Assembly: GCA_963668305.2 (NCBI GenBank) | Contig: CAXXPN010000003.1 | Coordinates: 416,001 to 480,000 of the forward strand | DNA from: Alphaproteobacteria bacterium | Lineage (GTDB): Bacteria > Pseudomonadota > Alphaproteobacteria > Bin95 | Direction: 5' to 3' | DNA length: 64,000 nucleotides | In this document: piece after piece, positions 14,720 through 47,195 of the stretch | Layout: each line of letters opens with the position of its first letter | Position numbering within the stretch: position 1 is the first letter of the stretch | Made by a program: the position numbers and the translations under genes | Notes under the pieces: generated by a model | The model's input: the letters and a program-made list of their open reading frames with translations, nothing else | Told to the model about the DNA's origin: nothing | The model's database searches: none

Positions 14720-15095
14720 GGAAACAGAATATTTTCTCATATAAAGTTTGATTCTGGAGAATCCGTGCTAAGATGGGACAGGAGGTAAGGAAGCGGCGTC
14801 CGCGGGGCCGTTTCGCCTCCTGTTTCGCGCCTGTACGGGCGCGGACATGCGCGTGCAGGCGCGGATACGCGCGAAAAAGGGTCCTGCCGTCGTCGATCCG
14901 GCGGTAGGGAGAATGGAACAGAGAGGAACGAAACGAGATGGGAGAACGACATGCAGCCTGCTCCGAACTCGATCCGGGGGCCGGCTCCGGCCTTCTCAGG
15001 AGCTTCAACGGTCCATCTCCATGCTCGAACTGGCCATACCCTATGAACTCTTGGCATGAGGATCATGACGAAACATGACACATCATGACATTCCG
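14720..15095 (+). repeat. dispersed element copy 1 (promoter-like motif, hairpin, CATGAC 10-bp repeats); putative ncRNA or non-autonomous element
   Basis: homologous to the reverse complements of 21748-22215 and 46300-47195. Confidence 0.8.
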
Positions 15096-15137
15096 GGCGG
15101 GGGCCTGCGGCTTTGCCCCGGCCGGAACCCGGCGCCG

Positions 15138-16685
15138 TCAGGGCCGCATGCGGAAATAGCTGGGGCCGGTTTCGCGGAGCGGGGCGGAGAGGTTTGCGAA
15201 CTCGCAGAGCAGCGGGCGTGTGTTGCGGGGGTCCACGATCTCCTCGATCCAGAAGCTTTCCGCCGAGCGGAAGGGCGAGCGCAGCTTCTCCAGCCGGTCC
15301 TCGATCTCGGCAAGCTTGGCGTCCGGGTCCTCGGCAGCGTCGAGGTCCGCCCGGTAAGCCGCCTCGATGCCGCCTTCCAGCGGCAGCGAGCCCCAGAAGC
15401 CGGAGGGCCAGGCATAGCGGTAGGAGAGCCGCCCGCCGTTCTGGTGCGCGGCACCGGCCACGCCGAAGACATTGCGCAGGATGACCGCGCACCAGGGAAT
15501 GGTGGTCTGCCAGATGGCCGACATCGCCTCGACGCCGTAACGGATCGTTGCCTCGCGCTCGGATTTCGAGCCGATCAGGAAGCCGGGGCAATCCACCAGA
15601 TAGACCATCGGCAGGTGGAAGGTCTGGGCGAGATCGACGAAGCGGCGCACCTTGCGGCAGGCGTCCGCCGTCCAGCCGCCGCCGAAGAAATAGGGGTCCG
15701 ACGCCATCACCGCCACGGGCCAGCCGTCGAGCCGCGCGAAGCCGGTGGCGACCGACCGGCCCCAGTCCCGCCCGAACTCGAAGAACGAGCCCCGGTCCAC
15801 CACCGCCTCGACGATGGGGCGCACGCGATAGACCTTGCGCCGGTCGCGCGGCACCGCCTCGATCAGCCAGTCCTCGCGCCGGTCGGGGTCGTCGGTCTGC
15901 GGGCCTTGTTCGGCCAGGCCGTCGATGGAGGAGGGCAGGTAGGAGAGGAACCGGCGCGCGAGGTCGAAGGCGTGCTCCTCGCTGTCGGCGGCATAGTCGA
16001 TGGCGCCGTTCCGGGCATGGATCTTCCAGCCGCCGAGCTCCTGCTTGTCGAGCTTCTCGCCGAGGCGCTCGACCACGGGCGGGCCGGCGACGAAGAGCGC
16101 CGCCTGCTCCTTGACCAGCACGGAGAAATGCGCCGCCGCCAGATGCGCCGCGCCGAGACCAGCGACCGAGCCCAGCCCCAGCGCCACGCGCGGCACGGTG
16201 CCCATGTTCTCGACCACCCATTCCCAGCCCTTGACGCCGGGCACGTTCGAGCGGCCTTCGGTCTCGATGGTCTTGACCGAGCCGCCACCGCCCGAGCCCT
16301 CCACCATGCGCACCAGCGGCAGGCGAAGCTGGTTCGCCATCTGCTCGCACATGATGTGCTTTTCCTTGATGGTGGCGTCGGCCGAGCCGCCGCGCACGGT
16401 GAAATCGTCGCCGCCGACGACCACCGGCCGCCCGTCGAGCCGGGCACGCCCGAAGACGAAATTGGACGGCAGCAGGTGTTCGAGGTCGTTGCGGCCGTCA
16501 TAGCTCGCCAGCCCGGCAATGGCGCCGAGTTCGTGGAAGCTGCCCTCATCGACCAGCGCCGCGATCCGCTCGCGGACATTGAGCCGCCCGCCGTCGCGCT
16601 GGCGCCTGACGCGCATCTCGCCGCCGAGCTTGAGCGCGAAGGCTTCGCGGCGGCGCAATTCGTCGAGTTCGGGCTGCCAGTTCAT
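15138..16685 (-). CDS. acyl-CoA carboxylase carboxyl transferase subunit
   Basis: GRLNVRERIAALVD, DDFTVRGGS, AGPPVVE, LVDCPGF. Confidence 0.93.
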   Translation of the reverse strand: MNWQPELDELRRREAFALKLGGEMRVRRQRDGGRLNVRERIAALVDEGSFHELGAIAGLASYDGRNDLEHLLPSNFVFGRARLDGRPVVVGGDDFTVRGGSADATIKEKHIMCEQMANQLRLPLVRMVEGSGGGGSVKTIETEGRSNVPGVKGWEWVVENMGTVPRVALGLGSVAGLGAAHLAAAHFSVLVKEQAALFVAGPPVVERLGEKLDKQELGGWKIHARNGAIDYAADSEEHAFDLARRFLSYLPSSIDGLAEQGPQTDDPDRREDWLIEAVPRDRRKVYRVRPIVEAVVDRGSFFEFGRDWGRSVATGFARLDGWPVAVMASDPYFFGGGWTADACRKVRRFVDLAQTFHLPMVYLVDCPGFLIGSKSEREATIRYGVEAMSAIWQTTIPWCAVILRNVFGVAGAAHQNGGRLSYRYAWPSGFWGSLPLEGGIEAAYRADLDAAEDPDAKLAEIEDRLEKLRSPFRSAESFWIEEIVDPRNTRPLLCEFANLSAPLRETGPSYFRMRP

Positions 16686-46173: not shown

Positions 46174-46299
46174 CCGACGATCCTCATACCGATTACGGGC
46201 GCAGTATAGCCGGCCCGCAGAGAAGCGGGAGATACGCGCCGGGGCGGCGTTCCGGTCCGGCAATGCAAGGCAGGCCGGCCCCGGGGCCCCACTCCAGCG

Positions 46300-47195
46300 G
46301 GATGTCATGAAGTGTCATGTTTTGTCATGCGGTCCGCCGGAAATGTCATGTTTTGCCATGGTCCGCCGCGCAAGCGGGGGAGGCGGAAAGAGGTGCGGAA
46401 AGGACGGGTCGGCTCCATGGAAAACCCCTCCCCCGCTTGCGGGGCTACCGCATGCACACATCTCGTTTGAGCTTGTGTCCGATGCGCCCGTTGTCCCGGC
46501 AACGCCGCGCTCCGCGCCCCTTTTGTCACCCCGGCCCCCGAGCCGGGGTCCATCCCTGACTCCCGATGCCGCCGGCGGCGGAGAGCGGGGCCAACCGCCG
46601 AGGCTGCGGTGAAAACCGAGGCTGGGCCCCGGCTCGGGGGCCGGGGCGACGGATGGAGGACGTGCAATGCAACGCCACCGGACGGAGATGTGTGAATCCG
46701 GTAGCGCTTGCGGGAGAGGATGGGAGAGAGCCTCACGGCGTGACGGGTCTTTGCCGGGCTTCGCCCGCCGCCGCGCTGAACGCGGCGGACGATACGAATG
46801 GCGGCATCGGCGCCGCCGCTTCCGCTGGCGCGGAAAGAGGGGCAGACGGCTCGCTGGCGGATAGCGTCCGGGACGACAACAGGGGCGTATTGCTTCATCG
46901 GTCCTCCTCCATGTCCTTCGCTCTTCCCGCCGCCGTCCTGCCTGCGGCGGGTCCCTGTTTCGCGCGTACCGCGCGCGGGCGGGGGCGCCCGTTGGCGCCG
47001 GCGCGGTTCGCGCACCTGATTGCGCGCGCGAGACGGCGGACGCACCTCTCCCGCGCGTTTCTCAGGGGGTTTTCGAGAATGGCGCCGCCCGGCCGCGCGA
47101 CGCCGAAGAAGCGGCTCCGGATACCGCTTCTTCCAGCTTCATACTAGCATATTTTTCCTGATGTCAAGAAATTTCTTGGAACAAAAAGTAAAAAC
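46300..47195 (-). repeat. dispersed element copy 3, carrying nested insertions
   Basis: TGTCAT repeats at 46300-46360; shared core and promoter-like motif. Confidence 0.8.
46444..46705. mobile_element. 262-bp MITE with 9-bp TSD GCTTGCGGG
   Basis: TIR GCTACCG(C/G)AT(G/T)CACACATCTC; TSD at 46435-46443 and 46706-46714; contains REP-like palindrome 46525-46650. Confidence 0.85.

Follow-up and report, generated by a model that had tools for sequence, protein, structure and literature searches.

The small terminases of the phages SF6 and SPP1 form rings in which adjacent helix-turn-helix (HTH) motifs stand about one turn of B-DNA apart, and in the pac region of SPP1 direct repeats lie around the start of terS, as described in the portions of PMC4737164 that treat the ring and the pac site. 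Hundreds of sets of short direct repeats are found between the genes of Beggiatoaceae, where the unit TAACTGA contains stop codons, many sets lie near start codons and the repeats are thought to be regulatory, according to the relevant part of PMC4679880. The element described here invites comparison with both. It was noticed in a window of 64,000 nucleotides, the whole stretch of DNA that was analysed (positions 416,001 to 480,000 of contig CAXXPN010000003.1, assembly GCA_963668305.2, Alphaproteobacteria bacterium). An earlier note on the window had reported a three-copy element with a promoter-like motif, a hairpin and CATGAC repeats at a 10-nt period. We found that these copies belong to a large dispersed family whose full-length members encode a protein with a small-terminase-type DNA-binding domain. 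With a probability of roughly one half, the window units are non-autonomous members of this undescribed family, whose phased CATGAC block is bound by the terminase-like protein.

The genome to which the window belongs (G000; 5.5 Mb in three contigs, 67.5% G+C, 99.6% complete) held 47 exact copies of the family core. Searches with the 5' module by nhmmer gave 109 matches, 68 of which were near full length. In-phase arrays with at least two exact CATGAC units each numbered 127, against approximately 1.8 in-phase pairs expected from the 4406 CATGAC hexamers of the genome. Merging of the two modules resulted in 126 loci, 81 with both modules, 26 with the array only and 19 with the 5' module only; since long units are counted twice in this procedure, the real total is nearer 105-125. 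The element is therefore not confined to the three copies that the earlier note had counted. The motifs listed for those copies were all present at the positions given, in the same order and polarity, and shuffling excluded chance. The three-unit CATGAC pattern had four matches within the window and none across 100 shuffles, and the 16-nt core had three matches, with a shuffle mean of 0.10 and none of 100 shuffles reaching three. The family is genus-restricted: of 16 genomes from the genus 13 contained it, and of 24 genomes from other genera of the taxonomic family and class none did. Full-text literature searching, with most subscription journals outside its coverage, did not find a published description of it.

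The layout was obtained from alignments of 47, 60 and 68 copies. In 5' to 3' order the unit consists of an AT-rich tract, a promoter-like motif, a long inverted repeat (P1), a 16-nt palindrome (P2), GC-rich blocks, the core, a hairpin-like inverted repeat, a conserved purine-rich Shine-Dalgarno (SD) sequence followed by ATG, a variable body, the CATGAC array and a G/C tail. Units are polar and measure 0.35-1.5 kb. The promoter-like motif of the family, TTGACC-N15-TGnTAGAAT, was kept in nearly all copies, and it seems to resemble the alphaproteobacterial housekeeping consensus, TTGACGS-N10-14-GCTANAWC. Because the hexamers stand 15 nt apart, a canonical sigma-70 scan with a spacer of 16-18 nt found none of the three window motifs; TG sits one base ahead of the second hexamer in all three. 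The spacer had been described as identical in the three copies, which holds for its length of 15 nt but not for its sequence. The leader is GC-rich, approximately 230 nt long, and contains conserved inverted repeats and the 18-nt core, GATACGCGCGAAACAGGG; its GC-rich blocks include GCAATCAGG and CCGCGCCGGCGC. The array is not a homogeneous repeat but an ordered block, CATGAC-ATCG-CATGAC-AAAA-CATGAC-ACTT-CATGAC, with 3-4 CATGAC units per array at a 10-bp period and spacers that keep a fixed order. Behind it come A(C/T)TTC and then a run of G and one of C, reaching to about +19. No intrinsic terminator (GC stem with T run) was found at the tails of copies 1 and 2, and the G-run/C-run tail of the family has no T run either.

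Both edges of the unit could be defined. Sequence information climbs 38-40 nt before the first hexamer, the base bias of the tail stops approximately 19 nt past the last CATGAC unit, and the similarity among long copies spans from 36-61 nt before the first hexamer to 1-21 nt beyond the array. The coordinates reported earlier for the window copies contain the motifs but are slightly too narrow, as units begin about 40 nt ahead of the first hexamer and run on for about 20 nt after the last CATGAC. Among the explanations then offered, a non-autonomous mobile element with protein-bound phased repeats fits best; with both edges defined, it need not be one-ended.

Full-length members measure approximately 1.45 kb, and none of them lies inside the window. 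Eight units in G000 carry an open reading frame (ORF) of about 320 codons, with a product of 320 amino acids (aa); one of these genes lies at C1:844704-845672. Residues 11-80 of this product matched PF03592 (E=1.6e-12; score 48.7 bits, cut-off 26.1), a domain with nine matches in G000, eight of which are inside units. The protein also matched PHROG small-terminase families (PHROG 51, E=2.2e-14). In the AlphaFold model, with a mean predicted local distance difference test score (pLDDT) of 58, residues 11-64 scored above 88, and the N-terminus superposed on the DNA-binding domain of the SF6 small terminase with a template-modelling (TM) score of 0.86, a root-mean-square deviation of 1.5 A and 41% identity over 56 residues. 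Behind the HTH the model has a helical hairpin at residues 69-106 (pLDDT 60-73); the match to the PF03592 profile ends at position 71-73 of 141. The earlier note had suggested searching for a long copy with a reverse transcriptase, HUH or recombinase gene. Long copies do exist, but what they encode is this small-terminase-type HTH protein. No transposase (DDE, HUH, serine or tyrosine recombinase) was found, PF03592 being the sole Pfam match, PADLOC giving no match, and fold matches being limited to terminase and HTH proteins; a DEDD recombinase was likewise absent according to Pfam.

The resemblance to the small terminase of SPP1/SF6 (G1P) comprises the N-terminal HTH domain followed by a predicted helical hairpin, a direct-repeat block in cis to the gene, and the spacing of the CATGAC units, one helical turn, which equals that of the HTH motifs in the ring as far as described in the sections of PMC4737164 mentioned above. 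In contrast to G1P, the protein is 320 aa long, with an acidic C-terminal part covering two thirds of its length, of low-confidence fold and unlike any terminase, and its gene occurs in 5-16 copies per genome. There is also no phage context, and no large terminase of three Pfam families in the genome. In SPP1 the repeats surround the start of the gene, whereas here they are placed at its 3' end and recur at about 100 loci lacking the gene. The neighbours were ordinary genes and no head-morphogenesis module was seen.

Of the eight G000 copies, seven had an intact terminase-like ORF, as did the majority of copies in 10 congeners. The ratio of nonsynonymous to synonymous substitutions (dN/dS) was 0.36 for the whole protein and 0.18 when restricted to the N-terminal 110 residues (28 pairs among 8 genes), which indicates that the protein is under purifying selection. 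There were at least 358 homologues, and the best 120 listed were 65-92% identical over most of the length. The few named ones are labelled 'terminase small subunit' and come from uncultured Alphaproteobacteria. In viral contigs full-length relatives were not found; three loci there matched the HTH alone.

Several observations concern related proteins outside the units. The ninth PF03592 gene of G000 is a stand-alone gene of 132 aa (L099:5303-5701; C1:663302-663700), flanked by transposase genes and with no phage genes nearby. Stand-alone 'terminase small subunit' genes amid metabolic genes were also seen on plasmid pSR-1 of the cultured Skermanella rosea, Azospirillaceae (L101:2486-3145); they are 37% identical over residues 6-110 and show neither a leader nor an array of this kind. 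In the Protein Atlas, look-alikes of the C-terminal part were rejected, since they scored 0.88, under the lead threshold of 0.9, and belonged to unnamed viral clusters.

The terminase-like gene and the array are linked by the reading frame itself. Almost all aligned homologues (31 of 33) end in ..HD(I/K/R)(A/S/T), with or without one further residue, and thus the gene reads CAT GAC and stops at the TGA of the next unit, inside the array. The two also occur together: the gene was found in 12 of 13 element-bearing congeners, two of the 12 being fragmented assemblies with partial matches only, and in none of three element-free congeners. The genome G009 has at least 40 units and no terminase-like gene, and in it promoter and leader were well conserved and arrays eroded. 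Two or more intact in-phase CATGAC units were left in 12 of 30 units in G009 and in 53 of 68 in G000 (Fisher p=4e-4), where the G009 sample is the best 30 of 40 matches and the G000 figure undercounts long units. As this is a single lineage, the comparison is only suggestive.

A second coding class occupies the same place in the unit. It is an acidic protein of approximately 200 aa starting with MTA(T/N)DPRP.., unrelated to the terminase-like protein and without Pfam match, which gave seven matches at six places in G000, where it has a variant 5' module on one side and a CATGAC array on the other. In addition, the unit at C2:2892170 is a plain internal deletion of the terminase-like long form. 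The two unrelated coding classes and the deleted unit indicate that the unit keeps its 5' and 3' modules constant and encloses variable cargo between them.

The mechanism we propose for the preferred reading is as follows. Each unit would be a complete small transcription-and-translation unit, and the short units would be non-autonomous partners of the long ones. The terminase-like protein would oligomerise in the manner of a small terminase, with neighbouring HTHs about one helical turn apart, and the oligomer would bind the phased CATGAC block that closes the gene encoding it, as well as the sister blocks of short units. The bound block would then mark the 3' edge of the unit for a DNA transaction that spreads or maintains the family. 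That the oligomer binds four phased hexamers is proposed because of the HTH spacing and the pac repeats of SF6/SPP1, as given in the same portions of PMC4737164. The analysis establishes the family with its layout and two coding classes, the selection acting on the protein and the linkage of gene and array, while we infer that the units are transcribed, that the protein binds the array and that the family is mobile.

A considerable number of results weigh against this reading. No catalytic domain was recognised in the protein, and its C-terminal two thirds were folded with low confidence (mean pLDDT 58). No large terminase was found in the 99.6% complete G000 (PF03237, PF03354, PF04466), which leaves the protein without a resident partner for packaging. 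The unit has no inverted terminal repeats, its 5' edge (TTTGTTC..) and 3' edge (..CATGACACTTCGCGGGGGG..) not being complementary, and no target duplications or shared direct repeats were seen in the flanks in the alignment of long copies. The earlier note had likewise found no terminal inverted repeats, target site duplications or transposase. The search for empty sites, which it had recommended, gave no clean filled-versus-empty pair in 10 loci compared with G003, G013, G001, G005, G012, G015 and G016; at the element-free syntenic sites (G003:C2:356642-356760, G013:C1:980352-980430) there was short intergenic DNA unrelated to G000. Near-identical, i.e., recent, copies were absent in G000. Finally, the G009 units belong to another subfamily in addition to representing one lineage, and since about 40 of them are held without the terminase-like gene, units can persist in its absence.

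With insertion sequences (IS) and their miniature inverted-repeat transposable elements the family shares long coding members and many internally deleted short members with both ends in common, as well as intergenic, dispersed copies nested with other repeats. It differs in having no inverted terminal repeats, observed target duplications or transposase fold, and in that its short members retain promoter, ribosome-binding site and open frame. IS110 with its bridge RNA is alike in lacking inverted terminal repeats and target duplication and in having a single ORF and a long conserved non-coding 5' stretch, but the present protein has neither a DEDD/RuvC-like nor a Transposase_20 domain (PF03592 being its only Pfam match) and the RNA structure of the leader is putative. 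A high-copy intergenic repeat that is associated, in a narrow clade, with a single protein family recalls REPIN-RAYT and REP/BIME. RAYT is, however, a single-copy HUH enzyme and REPINs are short hairpin pairs, while the units here are of 0.35-1.5 kb, polar and promoter-bearing, with the HTH protein encoded within the repeat. Phage morons are likewise self-contained units between genes, running from a promoter to a GC-rich 3' stem with variable cargo, and the element also carries at least two unrelated proteins; it is, in contrast, situated outside prophages, numbers about a hundred per genome, has a shared leader and repeat block and lacks a T-run terminator. Excisionases of the lambda Xis type are comparable in that a small winged-HTH protein is expected on 3-4 head-to-tail sites at the edge of mobile DNA, but neither an integrase partner nor an attachment-site core was identified for the element, and the homology is to terminase domains instead. 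As for the Beggiatoaceae repeats, the part of PMC4679880 that describes them presents heptamers arranged head to tail immediately upstream of genes, and neither a promoter-leader module nor a protein gene linked to them, whereas the hexamers of the element are parted by 4-nt spacers in a fixed order.

The foremost rival, though an unlikely one, is a multi-copy family of self-transcribed structured RNAs, in which an RNA of approximately 450 nt with a 5' domain and CAUGAC motifs would titrate an RNA-binding protein and the coding long forms would be incidental cargo. The conserved promoter-like motif agrees with it, as does the patchy conservation, with kept blocks between variable segments and indels. 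Divergence in eight same-locus pairs, of which two came from near-identical genomes, was 9.4% in conserved and 46% in variable columns. The inverted repeats are maintained as well: 75.9% of their cells were paired, compared to 44-58% in slid-partner controls, and the inner helix of P1 was paired in 88.9% of cells across 60 copies. Covariation, on the other hand, was weak (changes on both sides in 15 pairs, against 15.1 in shuffles). Wobble cells comprised 117 G-T and 128 A-C, so that the transcribed strand is not singled out over a DNA palindrome. RNAalifold on 60 copies produced only 17 scattered pairs, and single-sequence folds agreed on P1 alone. Rfam, which the earlier note had named as a check, gave no match at gathering score in the 64 kb and none at E<=1 on copy 2. 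The SD and ATG, both conserved, and a frame open as far as the array point to translation, and the 10-nt period matches the helical repeat of DNA. The non-coding RNA alternative of the earlier note is thereby disfavoured. Contigs from four RNA runs over window positions 20800-23200 covered the neighbouring genes, one run up to the array edge at 21788, and left 21790-22860 uncovered; they break at repeats and come from a strain of 95-99% similarity, and are therefore uninformative on transcription of the units.

Somewhat less probable still is the view that the CATGAC blocks are about a hundred chromosomal pac-like sites served by a resident small-terminase-type protein, that is, a packaging-signal system and not a transposon. 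A phage or particle-forming element would then bring the large terminase, and the protein would assemble on the blocks. One-directional headful packaging of the adjoining host DNA could follow, amounting to genome-wide organised transduction in which the repeats offer homology for recombination in the recipient; as another option, the blocks could act as a decoy derailing phage packaging. Given that G000 has no large terminase and that full-length viral relatives are missing, any packaging role would need an incoming partner. If the link between protein and block is true, a DNA-recognition protein of phage-packaging type and a phased block are joined to a high-copy dispersed element without recognisable transposase, which had not previously been linked. 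This would reveal either a new way of moving DNA or packaging-type signals distributed across a bacterial chromosome, and would bear on rearrangement and exchange in the genomes of uncultured symbiont-type Alphaproteobacteria. At present the annotation of roughly 1% of these genomes consists only of scattered 'terminase small subunit' genes, a label that could falsely point to prophages.

Equally doubtful is a portable cis-regulatory cassette, with an outward promoter and a translated leader, whose ATGA stop/start signals in three frames would pass on or block ribosomes and transcription. With units spaced by 10 nt, the array offers TGA and ATG in every frame. The frame opened by SD-ATG was open to the array in 45 of 53 units, the other two frames in 25 and 36 (5 of 58 units, where the SD-ATG pattern was not found, were dropped). 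Of the 13 units in which the array is more than 260 nt away, nine had it open, four of these without the terminase-like gene, compared to one and two for the other frames. Translation of the unit itself thus seems to matter, judging from these frames. The commonest short ORF (41 codons, 9 copies) was considered as a conserved protein and rejected, because its codon positions showed no bias (diversity 0.30/0.33/0.32) and its dN/dS was about 0.9, as in a shifted frame. All of the 64 units placed relative to predicted genes were intergenic. The median gap from array to next gene was 74 nt, the first start codon of the downstream ORF lay within the array in 14 of 35 co-directional cases, and the last ATG of copy 3 opens a frame of 720 codons for a thiamine pyrophosphate (TPP) enzyme. 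Against the cassette, the downstream gene was convergent in 29 of 64 units, so that orientation is roughly random; copy 1 itself faces the 3' end of a carboxyltransferase gene, in line with the earlier judgement that the copies are unlikely to be leaders. Moreover, the first Pfam domain of the TPP enzyme begins at residue 53, which puts the true start probably downstream, and the ORF caller takes the first start after a stop, favouring an ATG in the array by construction. The gene calls behind these counts are crude, GC3-based, and cover 70-75% of the genome.

The history of the units was followed at shared loci. Units occupy the same locus in species with flanks 82-96% identical, and gene order between species often breaks exactly at units. 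Elements at one locus in two species may come from different subfamilies, their variable columns differing by up to 62% and their flanks being 90% identical; such divergence points to replacement by another family member, by conversion or re-insertion, in several pairs. The closest pair of units in G000 was 93.5% identical and long copies were mutually 88-92% identical, as compared to 99.5% for an unrelated IS of the same genome. An extinct family of decaying relics from an old burst, without present function, would suit the lack of near-identical copies (paralogue synonymous divergence about 0.27) and the many copies kept at the same locus in species with flanks 5-18% different, but is the least probable explanation of all, as the terminase-like ORFs are largely intact and under purifying selection, motifs are far better conserved than spacers, and same-locus elements of different subfamilies imply replacement or re-insertion.

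The three window copies are short derivatives lacking the protein. The leader of copy 1 is without about 85 model positions, which splits its nhmmer match in two; its ORF is probably not a functional protein. Copy 1 has a small upstream region, behind a LysR gene, on one side and the convergent carboxyltransferase gene's 3' end on the other; copy 2 lies between a nucleotidyltransferase/HEPN-type gene pair and a GRDB-like gene, and copy 3 between an asparaginase gene and the TPP-enzyme gene. Copy 3 owes its length to a nested repeat of a foreign family, which has 14-17 other copies in G000 and many matches in relatives (query positions 1628-2036). Coordinates are collected in Table 1.

Table 1. 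Features of the three window copies (window positions) and related features elsewhere (contig or locus given with the position).
Feature	Position	Strand	Description
Copy 1, whole unit	14708..15110	+	short form with internal leader deletion; edges inferred from family edges
Copy 1, nhmmer matches	C3:430709-430837; C3:430839-430924	+	model 3-125; model 211-302
Copy 1, promoter-like motif	14748..14774	+	TTGATT 14748-14753, 15 nt, (TGc)TAAGAT 14769-14774
Copy 1, inverted repeat P1	14780..14820	+	AGGAGG..GAAGCGGC / GCCGTTTC..CCTCC
Copy 1, core	14866..14881	+	TACGCGCGAAAAAGGG
Copy 1, ORF	14938..15081	+	enters array, stops at a unit's TGA (..HEDHDET, stop)
Copy 1, array	15064..15089	+	three CATGAC units, 10-nt period
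Copy 2, whole unit	21730..22226	-	typical complete short form; nhmmer C3:438217-437930, score 231
Copy 2, promoter-like motif	22160..22186	-	TTGACC 22186-22181, 15 nt, (TGc)TAGGAT 22165-22160
Copy 2, inverted repeat P1	22120..22154	-	
Copy 2, palindrome P2	22101..22116	-	TTCGCGCCGGTGCGAA
Copy 2, core	21974..21989	-	
Copy 2, ORF	21764..21913	-	49 codons from conserved SD-ATG, stop within array (..MTKHDTS, stop)
Copy 2, array	21753..21788	-	four CATGAC units
Copy 3, whole unit	46280..47207	-	short form enlarged by nested repeat; nhmmer C3:463205-462916
Copy 3, promoter-like motif	47141..47167	-	TTGACA 47167-47162, 15 nt, (TGc)TAGTAT 47146-47141
Copy 3, inverted repeat P1	47104..47136 (approximate)	-	
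Copy 3, core	46953..46968	-	
Copy 3, ORF	46305..46898	-	197 codons from conserved SD-ATG; open through nested repeat, stop within array
Copy 3, array	46304..46329	-	three CATGAC units; partial array upstream, ~46345-46365
Nested repeat in copy 3	~46400..46850	-	another family, not part of the element proper
MTA(T/N)DPRP cargo, G000	C2:1118617-1119216, 1165308-1165661, 1759797-1760150, 265483-265875, 2590454-2590558; C3:940842-941084		second coding class
IS4/IS5-type IS abutting arrays, G000	C2:1620021-1620079, 2102370-2102428, 396918-396976; L090:15413-17208		

Some further observations were made around the units. Repeated CRISPR spacers (CTTTCAACCAACC..; arrays at C1:600.6 kb and C3:277.3 kb) were unlike the element by eye, no BLAST search with spacers being made. 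A palindromic GC-rich repeat was nested inside several other units. Just upstream of copy 2, at window positions 22297-23803, there is the pair of a nucleotidyltransferase gene and an NTase-substrate-binding (HEPN-like) gene, and the element-free relative G003 has neither this block nor copy 2 at its syntenic site. Between the carboxyltransferase gene and a small minus-strand gene (L011, L013; window ~14530-14602), the small modules differed with the species: G000 and G016 had the element there, G012 other short genes. The IS mentioned above, of IS4/IS5 type with a DDE_Tnp_1-like transposase and copies 99.5% identical, has an end, CACTAGTGTCCGG, that directly abuts a CATGAC/GTCATG unit in six of nine occurrences, and the arrays thus look like a preferred target of this IS.

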